From the NCBI GenBank assembly GCA_937864035.1, contig CALMIO010000002.1:243877-307876 (forward strand): a stretch of 64,000 nt of DNA, written 5' to 3'. The translations under genes were made by a program, and so were the position numbers. Each line of letters starts with the position of its first letter. The stretch's first letter is position 1. Source of the DNA: an uncultured Pseudomonadota bacterium. GTDB taxonomy: Bacteria; Bdellovibrionota_C; UBA2361; CALMIO01. Of this stretch, positions 15,711-56,069 are shown piece by piece. Below the pieces are notes generated by a model. That model saw only the letters and a program-made list of their open reading frames with translations, was not told where the DNA came from and did not search any database.

Positions 15711-16033
15711 AAAACAAAAAAAATAATTCTCCTATTGTCGTTTAAACTCAATATTTAACCCGACAAAAACGAGGCAAGTCGTTAAATTTGTTTTATTTTT
15801 TTCGACAAAAGTTGTTAAATTCTTGTGCGCCTTTTGTTTGTAAGATGTCGTTTATTAAGGTTGTTTTATTTGCTCGTTCTATAAAACATATATTTTTACT
15901 GTTGTTAACTTACAGTTTTTAAACAGTAAAAATATATGTTTTATAGGGGTTTGTTTTGTTTATCTACAACTTTTTGTTGTACTATTACTACTACTATATT
16001 TAATTTATAAATTAATAATATTAAAAAAGTTTT
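15711..16033. other. Candidate oriC: AT-rich dnaA-dnaN spacer with DnaA box TTATCTACA (15960-15968, one mismatch to TTATCCACA) and a downstream AT-rich putative unwinding stretch
   Basis: Seen directly in sequence. Flanked by dnaA and dnaN, the classic location of oriC. Confidence 0.45.
15879..15946. repeat. Perfect 25-bp inverted repeat (arms 15879-15903 and 15922-15946, 18-nt spacer containing GTTAAC)
   Basis: ctataaaacatatatttttactgtt and aacagtaaaaatatatgttttatag are exact reverse complements, followed by a T-rich run. Either a dnaA terminator or an origin-associated hairpin. Confidence 0.7.
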
Positions 16034-17152
16034 ATGCATATAAAAATAAATCAATCCGTCCTCAGTAGCGCCGCTATCAAAATAATCTCTTGTGCCGGAA
16101 AAAAAAGCACCCTGCCAATTCTTGCTAATTTTAAATTAGAAGCAGACAAGAACTACCTTAAAATACTAACTAGCGACCTTGAGATAACAGCAGTTGCTAA
16201 GATAAATTGCGTCTCTTTAAAAAGCGGCACAACAACAGTTAATGCTAAACTTTTTTGCGACCTTATAAGAGAACTTCCAGATGGGGAAATCAACATCTCC
16301 CTCGAGGATGGCGAAAGGTTGGAAATAACATCAGAAAGATCAAAATATAAACTCTCAGTTGTGCCAGCAGAAGGTTTTCCTGATATAAAAGGAACAGATA
16401 TAAAAACAAATGGAAGGATTCGAGCCGGAGATCTTGTTGAGATGATCAATAAAACCATTTACGCGGTTTCTTTTGACCAAACCCAATTAAACATAGGTGG
16501 CATAGGTTGCGACTATAACGAAAATAATTTGATATTTATTGGAACAGATAAAAACAGATTGTCGTTGATTAGCAAAAAAGCAGATGGCCTTAAAATAGAC
16601 AGAGAGAACCTTCCTATATTGCCACGTCGGGTTGCCTCCGAGATTAAACGAATAGTTGAAGCAGTAAACCCAGACGATATTTTAGGAGTCGACATAATAG
16701 ACGGAATGTTTATAGTTGAAGGAGATAACTTTAAAATATCAGCCGCCCTGATCAACGCGAGTTTTATAGGTTATTCTAAATTGCTTTCAGCGGAGGTTGG
16801 AAAAATATGCTCTGTTTTGTCTGGAGAGATCTCATCAGCGATTAAAAGAGCTTCCTTAATGGCAACAGGAGACGATATTAAGGTGGTGGAACTTGAATTT
16901 ACAAAAGATATTATAAACATAAAAGGAGCCTCTCTAGAATCAGGAGAGGGGTTTGAACAGGTTTCTTGTAAATACGATGGAGAGAGTTTTAGGGCTGGTT
17001 TCAACGCTCGATATCTTTTGGATTTTATAAATCCAATAAATTCTGACTCGATAGTGCTTTTTGAATTAAGTGGAGAAAAACGCCCACTAAAGATATATCC
17101 AGCCGATCAAAAAGAATATCTTGGCTTTATAATGCCAATGAGAAACGACTAA
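16034..17152 (+). CDS. dnaN: DNA polymerase III beta sliding clamp
   Basis: 372 aa, MHIKINQSVLSSA N-terminus, position after dnaA, three-domain length. Confidence 0.88.
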   Translation: MHIKINQSVLSSAAIKIISCAGKKSTLPILANFKLEADKNYLKILTSDLEITAVAKINCVSLKSGTTTVNAKLFCDLIRELPDGEINISLEDGERLEITSERSKYKLSVVPAEGFPDIKGTDIKTNGRIRAGDLVEMINKTIYAVSFDQTQLNIGGIGCDYNENNLIFIGTDKNRLSLISKKADGLKIDRENLPILPRRVASEIKRIVEAVNPDDILGVDIIDGMFIVEGDNFKISAALINASFIGYSKLLSAEVGKICSVLSGEISSAIKRASLMATGDDIKVVELEFTKDIINIKGASLESGEGFEQVSCKYDGESFRAGFNARYLLDFINPINSDSIVLFELSGEKRPLKIYPADQKEYLGFIMPMRND

Positions 17153-17283
17153 TAGTTCAATTATTAGATAGAAAATTTTAACAATCCAAAAGTTTTGTTA
17201 AAAATTACCCTTAGGCGTAGGCGCACAATTTTAATTTATTAAAATCCATAGCGAGCCCATTAAAAAATTAAGAAACTCGCTTT

Positions 17284-18378
17284 ATGCAAGTAACCAGAGT
17301 AGAGACAACAAATTTTAGAAATCTTATAAAGCAAACAATTTGTCTTGAACCAACTTTTAATCTAATAGTTGGTCGAAACGGACAGGGAAAAACAAATTTT
17401 TTAGAGGCGCTCTCTGTTTTAAGCAACTCTAAGAGTTTTAGAAGCGCGCAAACAGAAGATTTGATAAACCACAGCGAGAAGCAAGCACAGATTCGCTCAG
17501 AGATATTATCCTTTGAGGTTGTCTCTCGAATAGAAGCTATCTTACATAGAGATCGAAAAGAATTTTTTATAGATGGCAGAAAGTTAAAGAGCTTTTCTGA
17601 ATTAATTGGGAAACTATCTTCAATTTACTTTTATCCAGCAGATCTTGGATTGATTAAGGACGGACCAACATACAGGAGGACATTTGTCGATAAACATAGG
17701 ACATTGATTAACCCAACTGCGTTAACAAAATTTTATGAACTTTCCCGAGTTGTAAAAAACAAACTTCGTCTTATAAAAGATCTGCAAAAAATAACCCCAA
17801 AGGACCTAGAACCTTGGAATAAACTACTAGCGGAAACCTCAATCGAAGTTTGGAAAGAGAGAGATAACTTTATTAAACAAATTGGCGCGGAGGCGCGCGC
17901 TCTTTATTTTGAAATTACCGATGGAACTGGTGAATTGCGGCTCAGGCTAAAAAATAACAACCTTGATAAATCAAACATGGATTTTGACATTCTTTTTGGG
18001 ACAATTTCGGCTCGCGCTTCGGAAGAAATCGCGCGCAGGACTCTTTTGGTTGGCGCTCAACAAGATGAAATTGAAATAACGATAGACGGCAAAGACACCC
18101 GAAAATTTGCTTCTCAAGGAGAGGCAAGATCAATTGTGCTCGCTTTAAAGATGGCAACAATAACTAGCTTTGAAAATGAACGAAAAGAATCTCCATTGGT
18201 TCTTTTTGACGATGTTGACGCGGAGCTTGATATTCGAAGAAAAGAATTGTTTTTTAACATATTGCTTCAAAAAAATCGCCAGATAATAGTTACCTCAACC
18301 GAAGAATTGTCACAAAAAATAACAAAAGGTAGAGAATATAAAATTATCAAAGCAGAAGGTGGTTTTTTAGAAGGTTAA
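17284..18378 (+). CDS. recF: DNA replication and repair protein RecF
   Basis: Walker A FNLIVGRNGQGKTNFLEAL, C-terminal LLFDDVDAELD Walker B/D-loop, 364 aa. Confidence 0.88.
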   Translation: MQVTRVETTNFRNLIKQTICLEPTFNLIVGRNGQGKTNFLEALSVLSNSKSFRSAQTEDLINHSEKQAQIRSEILSFEVVSRIEAILHRDRKEFFIDGRKLKSFSELIGKLSSIYFYPADLGLIKDGPTYRRTFVDKHRTLINPTALTKFYELSRVVKNKLRLIKDLQKITPKDLEPWNKLLAETSIEVWKERDNFIKQIGAEARALYFEITDGTGELRLRLKNNNLDKSNMDFDILFGTISARASEEIARRTLLVGAQQDEIEITIDGKDTRKFASQGEARSIVLALKMATITSFENERKESPLVLFDDVDAELDIRRKELFFNILLQKNRQIIVTSTEELSQKITKGREYKIIKAEGGFLEG

Positions 18379-18440
18379 AAGGGTTAGCCCAACAAAAATC
18401 TTCGTCTCATAAAAAGACACCGAAAACGCCTTAAAACTAT

Positions 18441-18469
18441 TTGCTATGAACCCCCAGTTGGTATATAAT
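18441..18469 (+). promoter_or_regulatory. Sigma70-like promoter upstream of gyrB: TTGCTA, 17 nt, TATAAT
   Basis: -35 TTGCTA at 18441-18446, 17-nt spacer, -10 TATAAT at 18464-18469, about 55 nt upstream of the gyrB ATG. Confidence 0.45.
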
Positions 18470-18482
18470 AATATGGTATTAG

Positions 18483-20960
<2,478 letters not shown>

Positions 20961-28156: not shown

Positions 28157-31100
28157 TTATAAGGCTTTTTCTGATCCCAGGCGCAATAAAGATTCTTTTA
28201 AAAAACCTCCCCAAGCAGTTTTGGCTTCGAGTAGTTTTCTAGATTCGCCCTGAAAAACTATTTTTCCACCTTCCTCTCCCGACTTTGGTCCAAGCTCAAT
28301 GATCCAATCGGCGTTAGCCAATGCGATCTCGTTATGTTCGATCATAATGATGGTGTTTCCCGAACTAGCTAATTTTTTTAGAAAAGCCATCAGTTTGGCA
28401 ACATCGCTATTGTGCAAACCGGTAGTTGGTTCGTCCAAGATAAATAAGGTGTTGGATGCGTTTTCGATTGCTAACTGCTCTGCTAGTTTAATTCTTTGGC
28501 TTTCGCCTCCAGAGAGTGAGTTTGAGGGTTGTCCTAAAGTTAGATATCCTAAACCCAATTCACAAACAGCTAATACCACCCGATGAATGTTTTTGTAAGA
28601 AACAAAAAGATTTTTAGCCTCTTCGAAGGTTAAACCTAGTATTTGGTCAACACTCAAGCCTTCAAATTTCGGAATTTTTGCTAGTTCGCCATAGCGCGAA
28701 CCACCGCAAGTTTCACAGATCATTACAGCATCCGCCAAAAAACTCATTTCTAGCTTAATCTCTCCCAAACCTTTGCAAATTTGGCAACGCCCCTCGCCAG
28801 CGTTGAAGGAAAAATAGCTTGGCGAAAAACCTCGAGCTTTAGCCTCTAAGGTATTGGCGAAAATTTTTCTTATATGATCCCAAATTCCGAGATAAGAAGC
28901 CGGTGTTGAGCGAGAGGTTCCACCTATCGGAGATTGATCGACGGTCTTGACACCGATTATTTCAAGATCGCTAGTAATTTCACCGTATGGAGAAAGCCAT
29001 TTTTTTTCTTTGCCATATTTTGAACAGATAGTTTCCGCGATAGTTCCATTTACTAAACTGCTTTTACCAGCTCCAGATACCCCTGCCACCACGACTACGT
29101 ATTGTAATGGAATTTTTAAATCCAATGATTTTAGGTTGTTTAAGCGGGCATTTTTAACGGTGAGCCACTTTGTTAAAAATTTTTTTTCGGAAGCTTCGAC
29201 CTCAATATTATTGAAAGAAAGAGCTTCAGCGACTTTAAAATTTTTTGAGTCTCCGTTATAGATAATTTTGCCACCGTTTTTACCCCCACCCGGACCAACG
29301 TCAATCACATAATCAGCCGCTCGAATTGATTCGAGATCGTGCTCAATCATTAAAACGGAGTTGCCTTGCTCGACCAGTTCCCTGAGAGCCGCTAGCGTTA
29401 ATCTATTTTCGAGAGGATGAAGCCCCGCGCTTGGTTCGTCAAATATATAAAACGTGCCCGTAAGGGGCGAGCCTATAGCTGAGGCAATTCTGAGCCTTTG
29501 CAGTTCGCCGCTAGAGAGTTGGCGGGCGCTTCTGTCAAGCGGCAGGTAACTCAAGCCCAGTTTAATTAACGTTTCTAACCTCCTTTCGCACTCTGAGATA
29601 ATAACCGGAGCTAGCTTCTCTAGTTTGGGAAAGCTTTTAAGGTTAATACTCTTTAAAAAGCCTAGCATTTCGGGGGGCGTTTTTGAGGCGGCTTCGGCTA
29701 TATTAAGACCGTTGATTGTCAAACAGAGAGCTTCCCTTTTTAATCTGGCGCCGCCGCAAAATTTACAAAAAGCGCCAGTTTCTTCAAAGCCGCTTCCCGA
29801 ACAAGATGGACAAGCACCGCGTCTAGAGATAAATGAGAGATCTTCCGGATCGGGTTTTGAAAACCCCCGTCCGCACTCAGAGCAACTTCTTTTGGCGCTA
29901 TAAAGATAAGAATTGTTATCAGAAAAAATTTCGAGCGCTCCTTCTCCAAGAGCTAGCGCCTTGTTAACGCACTCTATTAGCAAGTCAGAGGGAATATTAG
30001 CTGGATTTAATTTGCCAATGACGTATTTAATCCAGTGTTGTTTGTTGCGATCAAGAGAGTCAAGCGCAGAATTTGGCGAACAAAACAGGATTCGATCAAT
30101 TTGAATTTCGTCGTAACCTTCGTCTATTGCTCTTTTAATAATTTCATTGTGCTTGCCCTTTTTGCCGGAAACTATTGGAGCCATTATTCTGATTGATTTA
30201 TTATAGCTCGTTTTGATTTCGGCGGCGATCTCTTCCGCGCTTAGGTCTGAAATTTTGGAAGCAGGGTGATCCGGGCAGTGTTGTAATCCGCATTTGGCGT
30301 AAAGCAATCGCAAATAATTGTAAGCTTCGCTCATTGTGCCCACGGTTGATAATTTTGAGGGCTGAAAGGTGTGCTGATAAACGCAAACAGTTGGAGGTAC
30401 GCCGGAAATATCCAAGATGTCAGGCTTTTTAAGCTCAGAGACGAATTGGCGGGCGTAAGGAGAAAGTGTTTCCAAATATCTTCTTTGCCCCTCGGCGTAG
30501 ATAATATCTTTTGCGATAGTTGATTTCCCAGATCCAGAAACGCCGGTTAAGGCAACTAATTTATAAAGAGGTATTTTGATATCTATGTTTTTTAAGTTGT
30601 GTTCTTTCGCCCCAAAAATTGAAATTTCAGCAAAAGATCCATCCTTTTTGAAATTTTTTTGAATAATTTTATTGGTTTGATCGTCTAATTTTGATCGTTC
30701 TTTAAGAGCAATCTGCGTATAAGATCGTGGATTAAGCTCCCCGCTAATAAAGTCATTCGGAGTTCCAACCTTAATTAATTCTCCTCCCTCAGAGCCTCCT
30801 TCGGGACCAAGATCAATAATCCAATCGGCGCTGGCTATTAGATCAAGATTATGCTCGACACAAATTATACTTTGTCCACGATCTGTTAGCTCGCGAAAGA
30901 GTCGAACTAAGCGAGCAACATCTTTGCGGTGAAGCCCGGTGGTTGGTTCGTCAAATATTAAAAGCGCCTTTTCTTTCTCGGCTTCAACAATAAAGGGGGC
31001 CAATTTAAGTCTTTGAGACTCTCCGCCCGAAAGTTCGCTTAACGGGTGTCCGAGGGTTAAGTGTCCCAAACCTAATTTTTCTAACACCGAAGTTATTTTT

Positions 31101-33439
31101 GTTAGTTCGGGCAGATCGGAAAATAAATCGCCGCAATCAGAAACGGTGGTTGCCAAAAGATCCGCGGCATTTTTGTTGCGAATAAAGCATTCTAGAACCT
31201 TTCCCGAAAAACGCTTCCCGAGGCAAACCTCGCAGGTTAAATAAACATCTGCTAAAAATTGCATCTCTTCCACTAAATAGCCGGCGCCTTTGCAGGTCGC
31301 GCAACGACCGCGGTCGACGTTAAATGAAAAATGTGATTTTGTTAGTTTCCTAAGTTTGGCATCAGGAGAATTGGCGAGTTGGTTTCGTAAAACCTCCCAG
31401 ATTCCAGAATAAGTGGCGATGTTTGAGCGCGGGCTTTTAGCAAGAGAAGTTTGATCAACAAAAAGGATTTCATCAAAAGAATCTTTGCCGAAAATTTGTT
31501 CGCAGGAACCAGGGGAACTTTGAAAAATAACCTCTTTTACTAAGGTGCTTTTTCCGCTTCCGGAAACGCCGCTTATCGCGATCAACTTGGCGGCAGGAAT
31601 GTCAAGATCGAAACCTTTTAAATTACGAGCTCGTGCAGATTTTATGCTAATAGCGATCTTTGCCTTTTCCGAGTTCTCAACACCTTTTTCTGTTTCAAAA
31701 AAGGGCAATTGAAATTTGTTTGATTCTCCAAAATAAACGAGCGAGCCGCCATTGTTTCCAGCTCCGGGACCAATTTCTAGAACATTATCGGCGTTTTTTA
31801 GATATTCCAAATCATGTTCAACTATCAACACGGAATTTCCTTGATCTCTCAGGTCGTTTATAGCGGAGATTAAATTTTTCGTATCCCGCGAGTGCAAGCC
31901 AACAGAAGGCTCATCTAAAACAAACTGAGAAGAAACAATTCCACCGGAAATTGCGGCGGCGAGATTTAGGCGTTGAGTTTCGCCGCCAGATAAGGTGCGA
32001 GCTTGTCGGTCAAGGGTTAAATAACCCAAACCAAGTTTTAATAGATAATCGAGGCGCGACAAAAGATTTTGAAAAACTCCTGTCAGCTCTTTGGGAAAAG
32101 TGGAGAGAAGTAATGCTTTTTGATATTGCGAATCAAACCACGGTTTTAGCTCTTTTATCTGTAGCCTCCAAAGATCGGCGATAGACAATCCGCCAAGCCG
32201 ATAAGCAAGAGCGCTTCGCTTTAATCTTGAACCCTCACAACTCTTACACAAAACCTGAGAGCGATATTTTGAGAGAAAAATTCGCACATGAGTTTTGTAA
32301 CTTTTTTTCTCTAGTTTTTTAAACCAGTGATTTAAGCCAACGTATTCTCTGCTTTTGTGATTTAAAATTAAATCTTTTTGCTCTTGTTTAAGCTTTTTCC
32401 AAGGAGTTTTTAAATTTATTCCTTTAGTTTCACAAAAATTCAACAACCTGCGCCTAAAAATTTTCATTGACGCGCCCGCCCAAGGATGAATAGCGTTTTC
32501 TTCGATCGAAAGATCTTGATTTGGCGCTACCTTGCTCGGATCGATCTCGAGATTAAAACCGAAGCCTTTACACTCTTGGCAGGCGCCATACGGATGATTA
32601 AAGGAAAAAAGAGATGGCTTGGGAGCATCTATTGTTATATCGGAACAACCGCAACTTGGGATTTTGTTGTAGTTTATAACATCTATTTTCGGACCGGTAG
32701 CGCCCTCTGTTTGCGCCACCAAACTAGCCTTTCCGCCAGAAATAGAAAAAGCCGCCTCAACGCTTTCGGCGACTCGCTCTATTTTAAGAGTTTTTTTAGT
32801 TAATCTATCTAGCAAGATCAGAAGATAATCTTGTTCTTTCAAAAATGCGGGGCTTAACTCAGAAAGGTTGAGCAGGTTGCAATTTTTTTGATTTAGAACC
32901 CTTTCATAGCCAAAAAGAATTAACCTTTCAACCTCTTCAACAGGATTTTTTTTCTTAAGATTAAAGTTTGAGCATATATAAAAGATCGCACTTGGAGATC
33001 TTTCAAAAAGTTCAAAGATTTCTCTGGCGATTTTATCGCTGGTCCAATAAGAAAGCTGATTGCCGCAATTGGAACAAAATGGAGCTGCTAAGTTTGACCA
33101 GATGATTTTCAAGTAATCATCAATATTGCTTAAGGTGCCAACGCTCGATCTTGAGCTGGTAATTTTGGTTTTTTGCCTGATGGCGATCGCAGGGCGGACA
33201 TTTTTGATCGAATCAACATTTGGTCTTTTGACCTTCTCAAAAAATTGTCTTGTATAAGGAGAGAATGTTTCCACATAGCGCCGTTGACCTTCGGCATAAA
33301 CCGTATCAAAAGCTAGCGACGATTTGCCGGATCCGGAAACTCCGGTAACAACCGTCATTTGATCGTGAGGAATATCTATAGAGAGATCTTTTAGATTATG
33401 CTCTCTCGCCCCTTTAATTTCTAAATAGCGGCTTTTCAA
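28157..33439 (-). CDS. uvrA: Tandem-duplicated UvrA (two complete UvrA units fused, 1760 aa, four ABC ATPase modules)
   Basis: Four Walker A sites (GVSGSGKSS, GVSGSGKST, GVSGSGKST, GVSGAGKSS). UvrA N-terminal signature appears twice (EHNLKDLSIDIP...YAEGQRRYVETFSPYTRQF near aa 10-65 and EHNLKNIDIKIP...YAEGQRRYLETLSPYARQF near aa 940). Multiple CxxC zinc modules. Confidence 0.9.
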   Translation of the reverse strand: MKSRYLEIKGAREHNLKDLSIDIPHDQMTVVTGVSGSGKSSLAFDTVYAEGQRRYVETFSPYTRQFFEKVKRPNVDSIKNVRPAIAIRQKTKITSSRSSVGTLSNIDDYLKIIWSNLAAPFCSNCGNQLSYWTSDKIAREIFELFERSPSAIFYICSNFNLKKKNPVEEVERLILFGYERVLNQKNCNLLNLSELSPAFLKEQDYLLILLDRLTKKTLKIERVAESVEAAFSISGGKASLVAQTEGATGPKIDVINYNKIPSCGCSDITIDAPKPSLFSFNHPYGACQECKGFGFNLEIDPSKVAPNQDLSIEENAIHPWAGASMKIFRRRLLNFCETKGINLKTPWKKLKQEQKDLILNHKSREYVGLNHWFKKLEKKSYKTHVRIFLSKYRSQVLCKSCEGSRLKRSALAYRLGGLSIADLWRLQIKELKPWFDSQYQKALLLSTFPKELTGVFQNLLSRLDYLLKLGLGYLTLDRQARTLSGGETQRLNLAAAISGGIVSSQFVLDEPSVGLHSRDTKNLISAINDLRDQGNSVLIVEHDLEYLKNADNVLEIGPGAGNNGGSLVYFGESNKFQLPFFETEKGVENSEKAKIAISIKSARARNLKGFDLDIPAAKLIAISGVSGSGKSTLVKEVIFQSSPGSCEQIFGKDSFDEILFVDQTSLAKSPRSNIATYSGIWEVLRNQLANSPDAKLRKLTKSHFSFNVDRGRCATCKGAGYLVEEMQFLADVYLTCEVCLGKRFSGKVLECFIRNKNAADLLATTVSDCGDLFSDLPELTKITSVLEKLGLGHLTLGHPLSELSGGESQRLKLAPFIVEAEKEKALLIFDEPTTGLHRKDVARLVRLFRELTDRGQSIICVEHNLDLIASADWIIDLGPEGGSEGGELIKVGTPNDFISGELNPRSYTQIALKERSKLDDQTNKIIQKNFKKDGSFAEISIFGAKEHNLKNIDIKIPLYKLVALTGVSGSGKSTIAKDIIYAEGQRRYLETLSPYARQFVSELKKPDILDISGVPPTVCVYQHTFQPSKLSTVGTMSEAYNYLRLLYAKCGLQHCPDHPASKISDLSAEEIAAEIKTSYNKSIRIMAPIVSGKKGKHNEIIKRAIDEGYDEIQIDRILFCSPNSALDSLDRNKQHWIKYVIGKLNPANIPSDLLIECVNKALALGEGALEIFSDNNSYLYSAKRSCSECGRGFSKPDPEDLSFISRRGACPSCSGSGFEETGAFCKFCGGARLKREALCLTINGLNIAEAASKTPPEMLGFLKSINLKSFPKLEKLAPVIISECERRLETLIKLGLSYLPLDRSARQLSSGELQRLRIASAIGSPLTGTFYIFDEPSAGLHPLENRLTLAALRELVEQGNSVLMIEHDLESIRAADYVIDVGPGGGKNGGKIIYNGDSKNFKVAEALSFNNIEVEASEKKFLTKWLTVKNARLNNLKSLDLKIPLQYVVVVAGVSGAGKSSLVNGTIAETICSKYGKEKKWLSPYGEITSDLEIIGVKTVDQSPIGGTSRSTPASYLGIWDHIRKIFANTLEAKARGFSPSYFSFNAGEGRCQICKGLGEIKLEMSFLADAVMICETCGGSRYGELAKIPKFEGLSVDQILGLTFEEAKNLFVSYKNIHRVVLAVCELGLGYLTLGQPSNSLSGGESQRIKLAEQLAIENASNTLFILDEPTTGLHNSDVAKLMAFLKKLASSGNTIIMIEHNEIALANADWIIELGPKSGEEGGKIVFQGESRKLLEAKTAWGGFLKESLLRLGSEKAL

Positions 33440-33526: not shown

Positions 33527-34534
33527 TTAAGTTTTATATGTTAATTTACCATCAACATATACTGCTAAGGGAGAAAAATCCGCGCCCAAAATAACTTTAT
33601 CGCCAACAATAGTTTTTTTTATTCCTAAAAGAGATGCTTGGTTTAATGAGGTGATCAGCTTGAGTTGCTCAAGGGTGGGAGAGATAAGTTCAAAAAATTT
33701 TTTAACGGCGAGATTATAAGGCAAAACACTACCCGCTAACTTTCCATTTTTTAAAACGGCCGCTGAAGATCCTTTTTGAACAAAAACTTTTTGATCACCA
33801 AGAAAAAAACTTTTGCTTTTAGCTCCCATACCTGCAAGAGCGTCACTTACTAGCATTAACCTTCTGCCAGCAATTTTTGCCAAAAGCTTAATATTAGCTT
33901 CGTGCAAATGAACCCCGTCGCAAATAAAGCCTATTTTGGTGTTTTTGCTAAACAACGCGGCAAGTACAGGACCGGGCGCGCGCCCACAAATTGGAGGCAT
34001 GCCATTAAAGAGATGAGTTGCCAATGAAACTCCATTTTTAAAGGCGGCAGAAGCTATTTCGAAACTCGCTTCAGAATGTCCTAGCGATACGATTATTCCA
34101 TTTGCTTTTAAAATTGAAATTGCTTCAGCGGCATTTTTAAGTTCGGGAGCAAGCGTGACCATCGCCACCCCCTTGGAACGAGACCATTTTTTGATGAGTT
34201 TTAAGTTTATTTTTGAAACTTTTTCTTTTTGATGGGCGCCAATTCTGTTGGGGTTAAAAAAAGGACCCTCAAAATGCCACCCTAGAACGCGAGCCGCTTT
34301 GTCTGGTTTCTTAAGTTTTATTTTTTCAAAAACTTTCAGAGCCTTTTCGTAGGTGTCGATCGTTGAAGAGACTATGGTTGGCAAAAAAGAGGTTACGCCG
34401 TAACGCGGTAAAAGTTTTGCCACCGCCTCGATTGATTCTGGTTCGGTCGTGAAATCATAACCAAAACCACCGTTTAATTGGAGATCTATAAATCCGGGAA
34501 GACTAAAGATTTGATTCGTTTTCTTGAGAAACAT
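33527..34534 (-). CDS. NagA-like amidohydrolase (N-acetylglucosamine-6-phosphate deacetylase family), N-terminally about 45 aa shorter than canonical
   Basis: GFIDLQLNGGFGYDF matches the E. coli-type NagA motif GFIDVQLNGCGG, followed by GWHFEGPFFN. Starts 3 nt after the upstream IDO-like gene stop. Confidence 0.65.
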   Translation of the reverse strand: MFLKKTNQIFSLPGFIDLQLNGGFGYDFTTEPESIEAVAKLLPRYGVTSFLPTIVSSTIDTYEKALKVFEKIKLKKPDKAARVLGWHFEGPFFNPNRIGAHQKEKVSKINLKLIKKWSRSKGVAMVTLAPELKNAAEAISILKANGIIVSLGHSEASFEIASAAFKNGVSLATHLFNGMPPICGRAPGPVLAALFSKNTKIGFICDGVHLHEANIKLLAKIAGRRLMLVSDALAGMGAKSKSFFLGDQKVFVQKGSSAAVLKNGKLAGSVLPYNLAVKKFFELISPTLEQLKLITSLNQASLLGIKKTIVGDKVILGADFSPLAVYVDGKLTYKT

Positions 34535-34537
34535 TGT

Positions 34538-35722
34538 TTAACTGATTATGTGAGCAAGAGTTTCATCTCGATGCTTTTCGAGATATTTAACAAAAGGCGT
34601 TCCGCCAGTTCCGACTTTATTTGGGTTGCTGGCGGTTTTTTCTGATTGAGAGTGTATATAAGAAACGGCGTATTCTAAGTGCAGGGATCTAAATTTCTCA
34701 ACCCAGCCAACGCATTTGTTGTAATTGGTCAAAGCGTTGCCGGCTTCGTTGCGGGCATTAAGAATGGCTTCTCGAATATTTGGTAGATTTTCTAAAACTT
34801 CGATAAATTTTTTGTGAGCGGGAGGCATATAGCTTCGCATCTCTAAAAGATATTGTTTTAAAAGATCATTTTGGTGATTTATTCCGAGCGCGGCGTCAAG
34901 CGCCGGAATAATCGAACTTTGCGCTCCAGTTTCGCCGCGAAATTTTTGAGGTTTGTTGCCATATTCTTCGACCCCCTCGTAAATTAAGCCGTCGGGCAGA
35001 GCAGGATGATTACTCCAGCCGTGAATATAGGGGCGAACTCTGTTGTAGTATATGTATGGATCGCACTTTTCTGGCATCCTTAAGAGGGTAGTATGAATAT
35101 TTTCGAGAGCTCCGGCTATGACGGCTAGCGTTGCCGAAGCGGCAGCGAAATCTTTGGCTTTGGCTTGCGCTGAAAGGTTTAAAAGTTGGTTTATTGCCCA
35201 CGAAGCTCGGGCTTCAATCTCTATGTGGATTGTCACGAACCAATCTTCGTCTTGACCTCCTAAAAAATTTTGCCTAAGCCCCAAATTTTCGACGGATATT
35301 TCAAGGTTATTATCAACAAGTCTCCAATTATTAAGCGCATAGGAAGCGTAAGAGAGCACGGGCGGTCTGCCTAATAAAGAACCAATTTTATGCCAAGGAA
35401 CTGCCAAGGAGGCTGGAATTGATCCCGGAATTTTTTTCTCTCCCCAAACATAGGCATGACCCAAAAATGAAAGGATCATAAAGGCGCGTTCGCGCTCGGC
35501 TCGCGAATTTAACTTTTCAACTGGCAACTTTTTAAGTTTGGCGATTTTTTGTTTTACTTGATCGCAAAGTAAGAGCTTTGGGAGTTCAGCGCCGAGTTCA
35601 TCGACAATCTCCCATTCTTTAGAAAGCTTTGACAGCGGCTCCGTGTTAGGCAAAAAGCCGTTATTTGGATCTATTTCAAAGTCGGCGTTTGAATATTTAT
35701 TTTCGTTTGGTATAGAATTCAT
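34538..35722 (-). CDS. Indoleamine 2,3-dioxygenase (IDO) family heme dioxygenase homolog
   Basis: Three blocks match animal IDO1: FRGETGAQSS (IDO1 FAGGSAGQSS), EMRSYMPPAHKKF (IDO1 DMRRYMPPAHRNF, includes the proximal heme His) and VGTGGTPFVKYLEK (IDO1 KGTGGTDLMNFLK). 394 aa. Confidence 0.75.
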   Translation of the reverse strand: MNSIPNENKYSNADFEIDPNNGFLPNTEPLSKLSKEWEIVDELGAELPKLLLCDQVKQKIAKLKKLPVEKLNSRAERERAFMILSFLGHAYVWGEKKIPGSIPASLAVPWHKIGSLLGRPPVLSYASYALNNWRLVDNNLEISVENLGLRQNFLGGQDEDWFVTIHIEIEARASWAINQLLNLSAQAKAKDFAAASATLAVIAGALENIHTTLLRMPEKCDPYIYYNRVRPYIHGWSNHPALPDGLIYEGVEEYGNKPQKFRGETGAQSSIIPALDAALGINHQNDLLKQYLLEMRSYMPPAHKKFIEVLENLPNIREAILNARNEAGNALTNYNKCVGWVEKFRSLHLEYAVSYIHSQSEKTASNPNKVGTGGTPFVKYLEKHRDETLAHIIS

Positions 35723-35785: not shown

Positions 35786-36658
35786 ATGAAAGGAATAATT
35801 CTTGCCGGCGGATCTGGCACAAGGCTTTATCCGATTACCAAGGCTGTTAGCAAACAGCTCTTGCCAATATATGACAAACCAATGATTTATTATCCGCTTT
35901 CAACCCTAATGTTGGCTGGAATCAGGGACATTCTTGTTATTACTACCCCACAAGATGCCGAGAGTTTTAAAAGACTTTTAGGAGATGGCGCTCAGATTGG
36001 TATTGATATTAGTTATGCCGAGCAACCTTCCCCGGACGGACTTGCCCAAGCTTTTATTATTGGAGAGCGTTTTGTCGGCAACTCCAACGTGGCCTTGGCT
36101 TTGGGTGACAATATATTTTTTGGGCAAGGGCTTGGTGAGTCTTTGCAAAGAGCAAAATCGAAAAAAAATGGGGCAACTGTTTTTGCTTATCAAGTTGCCG
36201 ATCCAGAACGTTACGGCGTAGTCGAGTTTGACGCGGAGGGGCGAGCCGTTCAAATAGAAGAAAAACCAAAGGCTCCTCGTTCAAATTTCGCAGTGACAGG
36301 ACTTTATTTTTATGACAACGAGGTTGTTGCTTATGCCAAAAGCCTTAAACCGTCGGCGCGTGGTGAGTTAGAGATTACTGACATTAACAAAATTTATTTA
36401 GAGAAGGGTTCATTACAGGTTGAAAAACTTGATCGCGGCACTGCTTGGCTTGATACCGGCACCTATGAATCGCTGATGCAGGCGGGGCATTTTATTCAGA
36501 CAATTCAGGAGCGTCAAGGATTAATGGTTGCTTGCTTGGAAGAGATCGCCTTTCAAGCAGGCTACATAGATAAAGATCAATTAGAAAAGATTGGTTTGAA
36601 GATGAAAAATAATAGCTATGGCAAATATCTCCTAAAACTAGCACAAGATGAGCTTTAA
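35786..36658 (+). CDS. rmlA: Glucose-1-phosphate thymidylyltransferase
   Basis: [39 protein letters not shown] is near-identical to the RmlA N-terminal consensus. 290 aa. Confidence 0.88.
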
Positions 36659-45349: not shown

Positions 45350-47386
45350 CTAATTAAATTCATATATTAAAAAGTCGCCGTAATTGCTGATAATTTTAAG
45401 ACAATTAAATGATTGGCTGTTTAAAGCTGGATAAGCTTTGCGCTCTAGCGGACCCAAGATCACGTATCTAATATTTTCTTTTTGCAGAAGAGTCCGTTTG
45501 TTTTCGCAGAAATTGTCAAGATAAATCTCTTTGGTAACATTATTTCTTCTCTCTGTTTCGGCATAAGCTTTATAAAGAAGATTGATGTGGTTAATCCATC
45601 CCAAATAACTCTGTTTGCCAGCAAGAGTTGAAATAGCGGAGGTGTAACTATAGGGGTTTCCCTGCGCCTCCAACACAACGCCTTCTTGAGCGTCACCTAG
45701 CTTTTTAATTGTCTCAGCCGCTCCGGCGAACTCACTCTCGATTTGAGACAAACCACGCTCTTTGGGTTGCATGACTGTGCCTTTAAATGATCTAATTTTA
45801 GTGGTATCAGAGAAAAAACCCGAAAGAACTATTAAAAACGCGATTCCTAATGGATAAGTTATATAAGAGATTTTTGGGAAACTTTCTTTAAATTTTTCAT
45901 ATAAAGAACCAAGCATATAAATTGCGTAGAGGTTTAGGAAATACCAATTAGAACTGTAAATTTTGAAAATAGTGTTCATTCGCTCATTTTCTCCCCCGTA
46001 AGGATCATCCATAAAGATAGTTTCGGGTAAAATTAAAAGAAATATGGCGGTTACCCCAAGGGCTTCAGCAACATTTTTTCTGTTGCATATTCTAAAGCAG
46101 ATTGTTCCGAAAAGGGGTAAAAGAACCCAAAGCGCTTCGCTTGAAAAAAAGAGAGGCACGGCCAGTAGCGCGCTAAAAAATCTCTCAAAAATAGTTTGTG
46201 CCGTAAAAATGGCGCCGAAGAAGATAATCACTAAAGGCACTCCAAAATGTAAGCCTAATTCACTTAAGTTAGTTCTTATTATCGGCGCTTTGACTAATTT
46301 AAAAGGATAACTTTCAACAGAGATTTCTTTTTTCATTAAGAACAGAGAAATTGATAAAATTAGCAAAAAAGAGAGAAGAACGAGCGCGTTTTGAGAAAAT
46401 TTTAGCTTATCAAATAGCTCTGACTTTTTAATGTTTTTTAAAGATTTAAAATTGACCGCCGCGAATATTAGCGAGAATAAAAATATGATCCAAATAGGAG
46501 CTTCCCAAGCATTGGCCGTGAATAACCAGAGAGGCATGGTTATAAAAGCGAATATGGCGAGAAGAATATGTCGCTCCAAGGAGAAACAATGCGGAATCGC
46601 TCTTGATAACAATAAAAAAGCGAAGGGTATAAAACCTAAATTCAAAAAATGTGGGTGAAGATCTCCAAGCAGAAAAGACCAAGCTGGAAATTCATTAATT
46701 GCTCCCTTTATTACCCTTGAAGGCCCCCACCAATTTTTGTCTTCAAGATAAAAATGCTTAATGCCAGAAAAATTTGAACCAACAGCAATAGCAACCGTAA
46801 AGCAAAATGAGCTAATTGAGTTGAATTTGAGAACAACCTTAAGTGCCGCATAAATAGAGCTTGCATAAAAAGCTAGAGAGAAAGCCGCTAAAGAATGGTA
46901 CACAACCCATGTTTCAATTTCGAGAAGGTTGCTTAAGACCGCCCCAAATCTATACCAATATATGTAGTACCCAAGCCTTTCTCCGGCAAACCAAGGCTCA
47001 ATTGGGAAGGTCGGATTGTTAATAACTGCGCTTAGTAAAGAGTAATCTCTCAGCCTTTCGCCGATCGGATAAAAATCTGGCCATAAAAGGCAGAGCTCAT
47101 AAAAACAAACGTAAGAAATAAAAAATATGGTTAACGGACCGATTTGAAAGGCAAAATTTTTTTTTCTAAAAGGATTTTGAAAAGAAAAATTAAAAAAAAG
47201 AGCGACTAGCAGTTGTATTAATAATAAAGATATGTAAATCGACAGCTTGAAAGAAACCGACAATTTGCTCAGCAAAACAGCCAACAAAGGAAGAGTTAAT
47301 AAAGTTAAAAACGTGAACTCATATATTCTGCGGGTCAAAGTTGAGTAAAATAAGGCTATTAGAGAGATTGCTAATAGGAGAATCAT
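45350..47386 (-). CDS. Large polytopic membrane protein (678 aa), DUF2298/YYY-like, putative GT-C-type glycosyltransferase
   Basis: More than 12 TM segments, shared motif FPAWSFLLGDLHPHF and Tyr-rich segment GYYIYWY. Paralog of the adjacent upstream gene. Confidence 0.55.
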   Translation of the reverse strand: MILLLAISLIALFYSTLTRRIYEFTFLTLLTLPLLAVLLSKLSVSFKLSIYISLLLIQLLVALFFNFSFQNPFRKKNFAFQIGPLTIFFISYVCFYELCLLWPDFYPIGERLRDYSLLSAVINNPTFPIEPWFAGERLGYYIYWYRFGAVLSNLLEIETWVVYHSLAAFSLAFYASSIYAALKVVLKFNSISSFCFTVAIAVGSNFSGIKHFYLEDKNWWGPSRVIKGAINEFPAWSFLLGDLHPHFLNLGFIPFAFLLLSRAIPHCFSLERHILLAIFAFITMPLWLFTANAWEAPIWIIFLFSLIFAAVNFKSLKNIKKSELFDKLKFSQNALVLLSFLLILSISLFLMKKEISVESYPFKLVKAPIIRTNLSELGLHFGVPLVIIFFGAIFTAQTIFERFFSALLAVPLFFSSEALWVLLPLFGTICFRICNRKNVAEALGVTAIFLLILPETIFMDDPYGGENERMNTIFKIYSSNWYFLNLYAIYMLGSLYEKFKESFPKISYITYPLGIAFLIVLSGFFSDTTKIRSFKGTVMQPKERGLSQIESEFAGAAETIKKLGDAQEGVVLEAQGNPYSYTSAISTLAGKQSYLGWINHINLLYKAYAETERRNNVTKEIYLDNFCENKRTLLQKENIRYVILGPLERKAYPALNSQSFNCLKIISNYGDFLIYEFN

Positions 47387-49611
47387 AATTTGATTTTAAA
47401 TAGATAACTTGAATTTTCCGACCAAACCACTTCAAAGATATTAGGAAAATCAAGAAACAACCTTAGTCCTTGATCTCCGTAAGTTGCTCGCTCCAATCCG
47501 CTAAAAACAAGGTAATTAATTTTATAATTTTTGATGATTTCAACCGCTTGATCGATAAAACTAGTTTGATAAAGCAAGCGCAAGTCATTTTGGCGCTTGT
47601 TAATCTCGTCTCGACTGACACCCCGTTGAACAAGATGATATTCCCAACCTAAAACAGTAGGCAGGCCAGTGTGCATGGTAATTCTAGTAAAATCTCCATA
47701 AGAGCCCCCGAATGCTTCGGCAATTACCGGCACTCCTTGCACCATTTTGTTTAAATATTGCACAATTGCGTTATCATTGGGCGAATATTGCGCGTAATAA
47801 GCTTCGCCGTCCAGTGTTGGACGAGGACCAGCAACCCTTTGAAAACGAGCCATTAAAACCATCAGGGATATCGCGCCTGCGAAACTAAGAAAGAGAGGTG
47901 CTGTGTAAAGCGCACTGCTGGCATAGCGAAAGAGAAAATCTTTTTCTCTTGAGGCAATAAGCAATTTTTGCAAACCGACTAAGGTGGCGATTCCTAAAAG
48001 AGGATATACGATATAATAGATTTTAAAAATCGTGTTCATCCTGTCAAAAAGATAAAGTTGTTCCGCTAGAATAATCGTTGAGCCTAAAGAGATAAGTAAA
48101 ATTCCGCTAAAAAAAGATCGCAGATAAGATCTGTCGGTGATAACAAGCCACAACGTCCCGAAAAAAATTATAAGTGCTGCAAAACAAGCAATCTCGAAAT
48201 TTGGCGGATTGAGAAGAGGAGTTTTTTCAGAAGCTCTAATAAAAATCTCTATTCGTGAGAGAAGGAATGCTAAACTAGAAATTATTAGCGCGAGCGACAT
48301 TTTGACAACAGCTTTAAATTTATTTTTGGCGGCGAAAAATATTTGTATCATAGCCAAGACCATTAATGGCGCGACAAATTGTCCGAAAGCGGAAAAAGCT
48401 TGCCAAAAACGATTGAATTCTGGGGCTGTTACGAAACCTAGACCCGGGAGTGAATCGCCCCGCACTTTGATAAAAAAAGGTAAAAGTATGGGAGAAGCCG
48501 CTAGCGAGATGAAAAAAATATCTCTGATAGCTCTTATAAACACCCTTCCTATAGACCTGATATTTAATTTTGGCAGGGGTCGAAACAGGATAATAACAAG
48601 AGTTAATGTTGAATAAAAAAGAAAATCCCAAACGTTTATTGCCATTAACGCTCCGAGAGAAAGACCGGCAAGCAGTAATCTTCCAAGAGTAATAGAAGAA
48701 AATTTTATTCCAGCTCCTCCAATTAACGGAATTAAGAGAAACAAAAAGGCCATTGAAAATGGGGGCGCGATCATGTGCGGGTGTAAATCTGCAAACAAAT
48801 ATGACCAGATTGGAAACTCCGTGAAAGCCGGAGAGGTGAAAAAGCGGGTAGTTGCCCAAAATAGATCAAAAGAGTTCTTTGCTGGACTTGAATAAACATC
48901 CGATCCGCTTAAAACCAATCTGAACAACTCTAGATTTGCAGAAAAAACGGCAAGAAAAAGAGCTCCGAAAAATGCAAAAATTCTTTTTTTGGTTAATGTT
49001 GTTAAAATTGAATAAAGCGTGCTTGCAAACAGACCAGCGGCGCTTGCAACCGATAAATTATAACCAAATCGTGGATCAACACCGCTAAGCTTATGAACCA
49101 ATCCCCAAAAGTAGTAACCAAAATAATAATATTTAAGTGGCATGCCGGCGGCCCAAGGCTCTTCAGCCGGAAAGTTTGTAAGTCGATTAAAATATCTAAT
49201 AAAACTTAAATCCATTGGTTTTTCTCCCCAGTAAATTTCCGGGTGAAAAGCTAAATTAATTGCAATTGCAACGAATGCCAGAAAAAAAATCAATTCGGCG
49301 TAGAAAAGTTCTTTGATAATATTTTTTAGATCTGGCCGAATTTTTTTTCGAAGATAAAGAGTTGCCGTTAGAGAAAAAAACAAAAAGCCGCTAAAGATAA
49401 TTTTTACTCTGATCGGGGAAAGTGGTAATGGAAGCAGAAGAGAAGTTGCCCATATAAAACAACCAACTAATAGCAACCCCAAAACCTTCGATATTCCAAA
49501 TCCAAAATCATTGGAAAAACGCAAAAGGGTTAAATTGATTGGTAGGCTAATAAGCCCAATAAAAAAAAGAATTACCAGCCAGATTGCCGAATTATAAAGC
49601 GATTCCATCAA
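47383..49611 (-). CDS. Large polytopic membrane protein (742 aa), DUF2298/YYY-like, putative GT-C-type glycosyltransferase
   Basis: Motif FPIWSYLFADLHPHM and LKYYYFGYYF. 4-nt overlap with the downstream paralog. Confidence 0.55.
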   Translation of the reverse strand: MMESLYNSAIWLVILFFIGLISLPINLTLLRFSNDFGFGISKVLGLLLVGCFIWATSLLLPLPLSPIRVKIIFSGFLFFSLTATLYLRKKIRPDLKNIIKELFYAELIFFLAFVAIAINLAFHPEIYWGEKPMDLSFIRYFNRLTNFPAEEPWAAGMPLKYYYFGYYFWGLVHKLSGVDPRFGYNLSVASAAGLFASTLYSILTTLTKKRIFAFFGALFLAVFSANLELFRLVLSGSDVYSSPAKNSFDLFWATTRFFTSPAFTEFPIWSYLFADLHPHMIAPPFSMAFLFLLIPLIGGAGIKFSSITLGRLLLAGLSLGALMAINVWDFLFYSTLTLVIILFRPLPKLNIRSIGRVFIRAIRDIFFISLAASPILLPFFIKVRGDSLPGLGFVTAPEFNRFWQAFSAFGQFVAPLMVLAMIQIFFAAKNKFKAVVKMSLALIISSLAFLLSRIEIFIRASEKTPLLNPPNFEIACFAALIIFFGTLWLVITDRSYLRSFFSGILLISLGSTIILAEQLYLFDRMNTIFKIYYIVYPLLGIATLVGLQKLLIASREKDFLFRYASSALYTAPLFLSFAGAISLMVLMARFQRVAGPRPTLDGEAYYAQYSPNDNAIVQYLNKMVQGVPVIAEAFGGSYGDFTRITMHTGLPTVLGWEYHLVQRGVSRDEINKRQNDLRLLYQTSFIDQAVEIIKNYKINYLVFSGLERATYGDQGLRLFLDFPNIFEVVWSENSSYLFKIKL

Positions 49612-55448: not shown

Positions 55449-56069
55449 ATGAACAATATAGTAGGAGTTGAAATTAAAGAGCTAAAAACACACCGTGACG
55501 AAAGAGGCTTTTTCAGGGAACTTATTCGTTTTAATGATCCGTTTTTTTCTCTGTCGAATGGTAAAACCTTGGTTAAGGGGGAGGATTCAATAAATCCATT
55601 TGCTCAATGGAGCCATAGCAAGATGATTAAAGACGTCGTTAAAGCGTGGCATTACCATCACAAGCAGATCGATTGGTGGTATATATCTGGTGGAGTGGTT
55701 TTGGCGGTTTTAGTTGATTGGCGCGAAGAAAGCCCGACTTACAAAAAACGCATTGAACTTTTGATGGGCTGTGGGGATAGTAAGTTTTTAGCGCCACCTT
55801 CTCTTGGCACAGAGATAAAAAACATTGAAAGCCAAATTGTTCGCGAAATATGCGTTAAAATTCCGCCGGGAGTGCTTCATGGCTTGCGCGTTCTGAGCGA
55901 TTCCGCCGAAATTATGTATATTACCAGCGAAATTTATGACCCTAGCGAAGAGGGGCGACTGCCTTTTGATTCCCCAGAGGTTGGCTTTGACTGGGGCGAG
56001 GGCGCTCTGGTGGTTGATAATGACAAGCGGTTTTTTTTGCCAAAGTCTGAAAGAAGGTTGCTTTACTAA
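55449..56069 (+). CDS. rmlC: dTDP-4-dehydrorhamnose 3,5-epimerase-like cupin
   Basis: THRDERGFFRELI matches the RmlC His-Asp-Arg-Gly motif, followed by WHYH. 206 aa. Confidence 0.75.
   Translation: MNNIVGVEIKELKTHRDERGFFRELIRFNDPFFSLSNGKTLVKGEDSINPFAQWSHSKMIKDVVKAWHYHHKQIDWWYISGGVVLAVLVDWREESPTYKKRIELLMGCGDSKFLAPPSLGTEIKNIESQIVREICVKIPPGVLHGLRVLSDSAEIMYITSEIYDPSEEGRLPFDSPEVGFDWGEGALVVDNDKRFFLPKSERRLLY

Follow-up and report, generated by a model that had tools for sequence, protein, structure and literature searches.

The IDO-nagA' gene pair and its junction

The window, that is, the whole 64-kb stretch of DNA that was analyzed, comes from an Oligoflexia (Bdellovibrionota) metagenome-assembled genome (MAG) and carries two adjacent genes on its minus strand. 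The upstream gene (positions 34538 to 35722) encodes a 394-aa heme dioxygenase of the indoleamine 2,3-dioxygenase (IDO) family, and the downstream gene (33527 to 34534), here designated nagA', encodes a 335-aa, N-terminally truncated NagA (GlcNAc-6-P deacetylase). Both reading frames of the first-pass annotation and the 3-nt, same-strand spacing between them were recovered. On the minus strand, the junction reads AGT TAA ACA ATG, with the IDO stop codon TAA (34538 to 34540) separated by the spacer ACA (34535 to 34537) from the ATG of nagA' (34532 to 34534). In the source genome, the gene order around the pair is rfbA-IDO-nagA'-uvrA. At least six contigs, and two MAG records at NCBI, carry the identical gene pair, which is therefore no one-off assembly artifact.

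The two open reading frames also share the same frame, which was treated as chance (1 in 3). A fusion of the two products or read-through was rejected, since the IDO gene stops where its homologues stop, with a C terminus coinciding with theirs in both the profile match and the alignment, and no IDO-amidohydrolase fusion occurs among its longest relatives. In consensus scans, no terminator-like site was detected between the genes, and promoter-like matches were not more frequent than expected by chance. One promoter-like match (10/12) was located within the 3' end of the IDO gene, at 34701 to 34672. Shine-Dalgarno motifs are nearly absent across the whole window, so that the missing motif in front of nagA' is uninformative. 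Regulatory RNAs and tRNAs were not found in the window. Judged from the 3-nt gap, the common strand, and the lack of a terminator-like site, the two genes are probably cotranscribed, as had been proposed.

The IDO-family protein

The IDO protein is deposited at NCBI under HMO01682.1/HMP26912.1 with the label "hypothetical protein". It matched the profile PF01231 with E = 3e-100 and 336.3 bits (cutoff 26) over profile positions 3 to 410 of 412, and phmmer aligned it over the full length with human IDO2/IDO1 (E = 7e-53 to 1e-49) at 26 to 31% identity. The AF2 model (pLDDT 86.4, pTM 0.87) has the two-domain, mostly helical fold of human IDO1/IDO2 (2d0t, 6e46, and 9uyy), with TM scores of 0.84 to 0.92 and rmsd values of 2.2 to 3.4 Å in Foldseek. 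The family assignment, made earlier from three sequence motifs that were all found again, was thereby borne out by profile and predicted structure.

The residues of the pocket were located by alignment with the human enzymes and with 28 bacterial homologues (alignment A1). The predicted proximal heme ligand is H303 (codon at 34814 to 34816), which lies within RSYMPPAHKKF (residues 296 to 306), aligns through the YMPPAH motif of IDO1/IDO2 with H346 of human IDO1, and is invariant in all 28 homologues; the heme-ligand His named in the first-pass annotation is thus kept. R230 (35033 to 35035), equally invariant, corresponds to R231 of IDO1, which anchors the substrate carboxylate. The block GETGAQSS (residues 263 to 270; 34913 to 34936) corresponds to GGSAGQSS (261 to 268) of the human protein, and the invariant GTGGT loop (residues 371 to 375; 34598 to 34612), part of the motif VGTGGT at 370 to 375, corresponds to G378-T382 of IDO1, the JK loop. 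Equivalents of F163, invariant among the 28 homologues, and of Y126 of IDO1 are also present.

The distal pocket differs from that of human IDO1. The position of S167 is occupied by H166 (35225 to 35227), a His invariant among the 28 homologues, as in the engineered S167H mutant of IDO1 (6cxu), to which chain the protein aligned slightly better, and as in TDO, which uses a distal His. Further differences from the human enzyme are the replacements of G262 by E264, of A264 by G266, and of F226/F227 by Y225/Y226, and a shorter loop in front of GTGGT.

By profile, alignment, and predicted fold, the product of the gene at 34538 to 35722 belongs, as a typical representative, to a large clade of IDO-family heme dioxygenases found mostly in bacteria. 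In the proposed mechanism, heme b would be held by H303 and O2 would bind to the ferrous heme. An L-Trp-like substrate would be oriented with its carboxylate at R230, its ammonium group at T372 of the GTGGT loop, and the distal H166 above it, and cleavage of the indole 2,3-bond would yield N-formylkynurenine. The model and the alignment show the fold and the pocket residues directly, whereas heme binding, the substrate, and the rate are what we infer from them.

The truncated NagA

The product of nagA' (HMO01683.1/HMP26911.1) passed the equivalog profile TIGR00221 with 248.1 bits (cutoff 225.65) over profile positions 55 to 351 of 380, a marginal pass owing to the approximately 85 unmatched profile positions, and failed the E. 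coli-specific NagA model NF008371 (206.7 bits, cutoff 483). NagA chains in the PDB were matched from their residue ~49 to 55 onward. With the mononuclear enzymes of E. coli and V. cholerae (1ymy, 2p50, and 3egj), NagA' shares 30 to 34% identity and a TIM barrel superposing at a TM score of about 0.9. The first barrel strand, PGFIDLQLNGG (residues 13 to 23; 34466 to 34498), is of the mononuclear type, with Q19 and N21 (E. coli Q59 and N61) in place of HxH, and the assignment to NagA with an E. coli-type Q..N site was upheld by the profile and by the alignment with the E. coli enzyme.

Seven further catalytic or substrate residues, encoded between 33842 and 34270, were identified by alignment to 1ymy, namely, E89 (E. 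coli E131), H101 (H143), H153 (H195), H174 (H216), R185 (R227), H209 (H251), and D231 (D273), all of them invariant or nearly so across 32 NagAs. The metal ligands E89, H153, and H174 and the catalytic Asp D231 are invariant in this set. In E. coli NagA, N61, H143, R227, and H251 contact the substrate and its phosphate, and all four are kept in NagA' as N21, H101, R185, and H209; these roles follow PMC6016474 and what is established for the E. coli enzyme. The alignment of 32 NagAs, in which NagA' itself is included, has 42 invariant columns, all of them retained in NagA', which also matches 90.5% of the columns conserved to at least 90%, compared with 88 to 100% for the other NagAs.

The AF2 model of NagA' reached pLDDT 92, a confidence that is not a measure of stability. 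The top 33 Foldseek matches of this model were all NagA/AMDHD2 structures (TM 0.76 to 0.93), and the next fold class scored 0.56. On sequence and modeled structure, the (beta/alpha)8 catalytic domain encoded at 33527 to 34534 is complete and is that of a mononuclear GlcNAc-6-phosphate deacetylase of the E. coli type, and NagA', if folded, would deacetylate GlcNAc-6-P.

The N-terminal truncation noticed in the first-pass annotation is real, and its length is about 40 residues rather than the approximately 45 given there: M1 of NagA' aligns near position 41 of the E. coli enzyme, whose residues 1 to 40 with the N-terminal strands of domain II have no counterpart. In NagA, domain II is an eight-stranded beta-barrel formed by the N and C termini (PMC6016474). 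Half the strands of this small domain are lost in NagA', which thus lacks the two-domain architecture of a TIM barrel with a full domain II; the strand preceding PGFID and the C-terminal strands are retained and were modeled at high confidence. The 32-NagA alignment also revealed a deletion of about 7 residues in the C-terminal domain-II segment. An in-frame N-terminal extension is not possible, because the IDO stop codon lies 2 codons upstream. A split gene was rejected as well, since an HMM of the NagA N terminus, run against the six-frame translation of the 64-kb window, found only the strand still present on nagA'. The nearest NagA relatives are at most 44% identical and all full length. 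No subfamily of short NagAs emerged; its sole candidate, a 337-aa protein (P0143), is cut by the end of its contig.

Distribution and gene neighborhood of bacterial IDOs

Bacterial IDOs have been known since 2011 (Yuasa, Ushigoe & Ball 2011, Gene 485:22; reviews PMC4191572 and PMC4217691), and the protein resembles those described in these sources in its Pfam family, its size of about 390 aa, its single-domain form, and its solitary gene. The proximal His, the substrate Arg, and the GTGGT loop are conserved in both; the present gene differs in coming from an Oligoflexia MAG. The earlier statement that IDO homologues are rare in bacteria did not hold. The search returned 7,957 matching protein clusters, of which the best 119 besides the query were 50 to 57% identical and metagenomic; at 50% identity, 3,343 clusters were counted. 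A scan of species-representative genomes with the IDO alignment placed the family in at least 586 species genomes of many phyla. Among environmental bacteria the clade is widespread and extends to streamlined Actinobacteria of fresh water and to intracellular lineages, and no evidence was obtained for the idea that the enzyme depletes or mimics host tryptophan catabolism in a host-associated organism. The top-ranked literature results contained nothing that ties IDO to Bdellovibrionota.

A NagA relative within 8 kb of an IDO gene was found by tblastn with NagA' at none of 82 other IDO loci (80 loci plus L084 and L085), and among these loci the pairing is unique to the source genome. Clustering of 481 neighboring ORFs yielded no conserved partner: no family occurred at more than 7 of 74 loci, the largest being aldehyde dehydrogenase (7/74). 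The IDO gene of Gemmatimonas aurantiaca reportedly has a kynU neighbor, unlike the gene studied here, and Pfam annotation of the genes in the 64-kb window revealed neither kynU nor kynB. Some of the longest relatives carry a fused hydrolase, in every case an alpha/beta-hydrolase and never an amidohydrolase, and a profile of this fused domain reached Drosophila kynurenine formamidase (E = 1.3e-6). Such fusions, with an alpha/beta-hydrolase of the eukaryotic kynurenine formamidase fold class, were seen in relatives that are 37 to 45% identical and have the distal His and GETGAQSS, which suggests that N-formylkynurenine is the product in this branch.

Relationship between the two genes

We favor, with a probability of about 0.8, two unrelated enzymes in one probable transcription unit, set side by side by an accidental, lineage-specific juxtaposition. 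This had been the alternative in the first-pass annotation, whose leading hypothesis was a module converting Trp via N-formylkynurenine to kynurenine, with the truncated NagA-fold amidohydrolase recruited as formamidase. Such a module is now highly improbable. It is suggested by the anatomy of the pair, with its 3-nt gap, common strand, and common frame, by the N-acyl amide group that N-formylkynurenine has in common with GlcNAc-6-P, and by the truncation, which makes nagA' no textbook NagA. A Trp-dioxygenase-type gene with an amide hydrolase gene directly behind it on its strand likewise recalls kynurenine clusters, in which kynA/TDO or IDO is accompanied by kynB and kynU, but here no kynureninase lies within the window and the pairing is not conserved. 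Kynurenine formamidases have a cyclase-like (KynB) or an alpha/beta-hydrolase fold (AFMID/Bna7), whereas NagA' has the fold and the residues of a NagA TIM barrel, with close structural matches to NagA/AMDHD2 only. All residues for recognition and catalysis of GlcNAc-6-P are kept, including the phosphate-binding R185 as well as H209 and N21, and the comparison of conserved columns gave no sign of a remodeled active site. The 82 IDO loci without a neighboring NagA, the absence of a short-NagA subfamily, and the alpha/beta-hydrolase in the fused relatives also speak against the module. Just as improbable is the recruitment of NagA' as a formamidase of a new kind for N-formylkynurenine, or as a different N-acyl amidase whose substrate is an IDO product, with translational coupling to IDO in a new two-gene Trp-to-kynurenine module of Oligoflexia.

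Two other readings concern the single genes. It is possible, though less likely than not, that the IDO-family protein is no physiological Trp dioxygenase and, like the low-activity bacterial and fungal branches, uses a different indole or aromatic compound as substrate or has another heme function. The pocket replacements relative to mammalian IDO1 fit this reading, as does the finding that neither kynU nor kynB is a conserved neighbor in the clade; yet the amino acid-anchoring R230 and the Thr of the GTGGT loop are invariant in the 28 homologues, the distal His is one that TDO also uses, and the fused hydrolases point to N-formylkynurenine. According to PMC4217691, in its summary of Yuasa et al. 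2011, recombinant IDOs of Erythrobacter and Neptuniibacter and the fungal IDO-gamma turn over Trp very slowly. For nagA', a nonfunctional remnant, a 5'-deleted open frame whose product is unstable or untranslated and which leaves IDO as the only gene that matters at the locus, appears unlikely. Half of domain II is gone and encoded nowhere else in the window, a further small deletion affects its C-terminal segment, no second case of the truncation was seen in thousands of NagAs, and the vicinity contains neither nagB nor nagK nor a SIS-domain partner, nagA' adjoining no other nag gene at all. In M. smegmatis, NagA without its beta-barrel domain gave no soluble protein (PMC6016474), so that NagA' may be unstable or nonfunctional though its active site is intact. 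Against decay stand the unbroken frame of 335 codons, normal codon usage, the conserved columns, and the confidently modeled strands of domain II; a frame without decay is weak evidence in either direction.

The accidental pairing most likely arose through a lineage-specific rearrangement, by which a nagA truncated at its 5' end came to lie behind a resident IDO gene. Like the gene studied here, the closest IDO gene on a long contig (L084; 56% identity) is near a cox operon, at a distance of 3.4 kb, whose COX1/2/3 are 66, 56, and 60% identical to those of the window, and is followed by a P-type ATPase gene instead of nagA. This partial synteny argues for residency of IDO, and neither gene stands out from the window in GC, GC3, or codon usage; together they disfavor a recent horizontal transfer. 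Reconstructed from this one distant relative, IDO would be an old resident of its chromosomal neighborhood, and a rearrangement or deletion would have brought the truncated nagA directly behind it. The gene nagA' would then rely on transcription from IDO and, for its start, on a newly acquired ATG located 3 nt past the IDO stop codon, and no metabolic coupling of the two would be implied.

Implications

The NCBI "hypothetical protein" can safely be renamed IDO-family heme dioxygenase, a step of little importance beyond annotation. The family was already known, and the pairing with NagA and the truncation are most likely lineage specific. A formamidase role of NagA', were it real, would mean a third fold among kynurenine formamidases; the evidence points the opposite way. 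With its natural truncation of domain II, NagA' is a small curiosity and offers a way to examine if NagA can do without the beta-barrel domain. The IDO clade has no conserved gene partner, and its physiological role is a question for the clade as a whole and not one for this locus.

The IDO gene and its distribution in bacteria

The minus-strand gene at 34538-35722 encodes a 394-aa protein that matched the Pfam indoleamine 2,3-dioxygenase (IDO) family (PF01231) with E=3e-100 over profile positions 3-410 of 412, and human IDO2 and IDO1 chains over the full length (E=7e-53 to 1e-49). The three blocks by which the first-pass annotation had recognized an IDO were all present, GETGAQSS at residues 263-270, RSYMPPAHKKF at 296-306, and VGTGGT at 370-375. 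Residue alignment paired human IDO1 Y126 with Y125 of the window IDO, F163 with F162, F226/F227 with Y225/Y226, the substrate arginine R231 with R230, G262/S263/A264 with E264/T265/G266, the proximal heme ligand H346 with H303, and G378-T382 of the GTGGT loop with G371-T375, whereas human IDO1 has S167 where the window IDO has the distal histidine H166. H303, R230, H166, F162, and the GTGGT loop were invariant across 28 bacterial homologues. The AlphaFold2 model (pLDDT 86.4, pTM 0.87) superposed on IDO1 and IDO2 crystal structures with TM scores of 0.84-0.92 at 26-31% identity. Membership in the IDO family is thus secure from the Pfam match, residue conservation, and model superposition; heme binding and Trp turnover are putative functions.

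The claim that IDO homologs are rare in bacteria did not hold. At least 7,957 significant proteins matched in a word-indexed protein search, the best of them 50-57% identical and, among the matches listed, from Acidobacteriota, Binatia, Armatimonadota, and Thermodesulfobacteriota. When a single genome per species was scanned, at least 586 proved to encode a relative; those listed included other Bdellovibrionota, Myxococcota, acI Actinobacteria, Melainabacteria, Legionella, Coxiellaceae, and Parachlamydiaceae. With HMMER run exhaustively against 1.84 billion cluster representatives, 3,343 clusters matched at E≤1e-3, of which 703 also reached E≤1e-30. The same IDO clade was kept at 47-51% identity in the streamlined freshwater acI Actinobacteria Planktophila and Nanopelagicus (loci L047, L050, L053, L056-L058, L068, L070, L073, and L078) and occurred in MAGs labelled Legionella, Coxiellaceae, and Parachlamydiaceae (loci L055, L059, L064, and L067). 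Bacterial IDOs are the subject of 2011 work pointed to in PMC4191572.

The shortened nagA gene downstream of IDO

A second minus-strand ORF at 33527-34534 (nagA′, 335 aa) lies exactly where it had been noted, directly behind the IDO gene. The coding-strand junction reads AGT TAA ACA ATG, with a 3-nt spacer and both ORFs in a shared reading frame; since the window IDO ends at the same point as its homologues, the in-frame TAA-ACA-ATG is best read as coincidence. At least six assembled contigs encode identical IDO and NagA′ proteins, as do two NCBI MAG records ("Oligoflexia bacterium"), in which IDO is annotated as "hypothetical protein" and nagA′ as "N-acetylglucosamine-6-phosphate deacetylase". 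A scan of the intergenic junction found no terminator-like site, promoter-like matches were no more frequent than by chance, and expression of nagA′ most likely relies on the IDO transcript. The absence of a Shine-Dalgarno motif before nagA′ is uninformative, because such motifs are nearly absent window-wide; the regions upstream of 43 window gene starts were mostly just AT-rich, which suggests Shine-Dalgarno-independent initiation in this organism.

The assignment of the downstream gene to the NagA family was borne out, with a score of 248.1 bits against the NagA equivalog TIGR00221 (cut-off, 225.65 bits), covering only profile positions 55-351 of 380. Alignment to the NagA of V. cholerae, K. 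pneumoniae, and E. coli begins at about residue 49-55, and Met1 corresponds to about E. coli residue 41; the N-terminal truncation stands, at about 40 rather than the roughly 45 residues first estimated. The E. coli-type metal site is there, with Q59/N61 aligned to Q19/N21, and E131, H143, H195, H216, R227, H251, and D273 correspond to E89, H101, H153, H174, R185, H209, and D231. All of these were invariant or nearly invariant among 32 aligned NagAs, and NagA′ agreed with 90.5% of highly conserved columns (88-100% in other NagAs). In the alignment, the GlcNAc-6-P deacetylase metal site, catalytic Asp, and phosphate and sugar contacts are thus all intact. For the NagA′ model (pLDDT 92, pTM 0.91), structures at ranks 1-33 were exclusively NagA/AMDHD2 (TM 0.76-0.93), the next fold class scoring about 0.56.

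Of the small beta-barrel domain II, to which both termini contribute and which makes no substrate contact (PMC6016474), NagA′ lacks the N-terminal half. The stability of this natural form is uncertain, because M. smegmatis NagA with a domain-II truncation yielded no soluble protein (PMC6016474). Upstream extension is impossible, because the IDO stop sits two codons before the ATG, and no other place in the 64-kb window encodes the missing segment. The nearest relatives were at most 44% identical and all full-length; the sole candidate for a short form among them was cut by a contig end. NagA′ is rather unlikely to be a remnant instead of a functional enzyme.

Genomic surroundings

The window carries the dnaA-dnaN-recF-gyrB origin region, ATP synthase genes, a cox operon (COX1/2/3), rfbA, rfbC, and envelope genes. 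The origin of chromosome replication probably lies within it, because the dnaA-dnaN-recF-gyrB cluster (14127-20960, plus strand) coincides with a cumulative GC-skew minimum at 14-16 kb. Over its whole length (1-64000), the window contains neither tRNA nor tmRNA genes, nor does any Rfam family exceed its gathering score there. Downstream of nagA′, after 87 nt and likewise on the minus strand, comes a uvrA-like gene (28157-33439) that encodes a double-length protein of 1760 aa with UvrA_DNA-bind, UvrA_inter, and ABC_tran domains. Envelope-glycan genes are dispersed around the locus: rfbA (35786-36658), rfbC (55449-56069), and two adjacent large DUF2298 membrane proteins and a PMT-family glycosyltransferase (45350-49611, minus; 61717-63954, plus).

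Origin of the gene pair

The first-pass annotation had proposed a module converting Trp to N-formylkynurenine and on to kynurenine, with the NagA-like protein as formamidase. In tblastn searches, NagA′ relatives were found neither in 80 other IDO loci of the species scan (flanks of up to 8 kb each) nor at the loci of the two closest IDOs. Among 481 clustered neighbour ORFs, no family was common to more than 7 of 74 IDO loci, and the 15 most widely shared families included no kynurenine-pathway enzyme by appearance. The 64-kb window held no kynureninase, KynB, or other nag genes. The lack of NagA at the other loci searched and of any recurrent neighbour there, together with the intact NagA residues, speaks against the module; a functional link between the two genes finds no support, and an IDO-coupled formamidase of NagA fold is highly improbable. 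Accidental juxtaposition, the alternative already offered by the annotation, is favoured (probability about 0.8).

L084, whose IDO (56% identical) is the closest one situated on a long contig, comes from a related lineage, its COX1/2/3 being 66/56/60% identical to those of the window. Its IDO sits 3.4 kb away from a cox operon, as also in the window, but is followed by a P-type ATPase gene. GC, GC3, and codon usage of IDO and nagA′ were all typical of the window. At a few loci, among them L085 (2030-5809) and L016 (6725-9137), IDO directly follows a PLP-dependent enzyme gene of Cys/Met metabolism, which in L085 is itself preceded by a cystathionine beta-synthase-like gene (PALP and CBS domains); this association is weak and unexplained (3-4 loci).

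Unusually long IDO relatives carried an N-terminal alpha/beta-hydrolase (n=4), a GDSL hydrolase (n=1), or a tRNA-editing domain (n=1), and none an amidohydrolase domain. The four alpha/beta-hydrolase fusions, encoded outside the window (P0279, P0306, P0347, and P0334), were 37-45% identical to the window IDO and shared its distal His and GETGAQSS; the fused domain matched Pfam BD-FAE/Abhydrolase_3 with motifs HGGF[FW]K.KW and GHSAG, and P0334 had an additional CN_hydrolase domain. A profile of the fused domain reached Drosophila kynurenine formamidase 4e11 (E=1.3e-6), among many esterases. PMC4217691 describes three IDO branches that mix bacteria with eukaryotes, with efficient Trp turnover enzymes in only one. 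That the clade of the window IDO does not oxidise tryptophan efficiently is less likely than not; the fusions are a possible hint that the window IDO's branch really makes N-formylkynurenine. For the organism itself, IDO would be a resident, solitary gene, behind which a lineage-specific rearrangement or deletion probably placed nagA without its first ~40 codons, and the IDO transcript would now most likely carry nagA′ expression.
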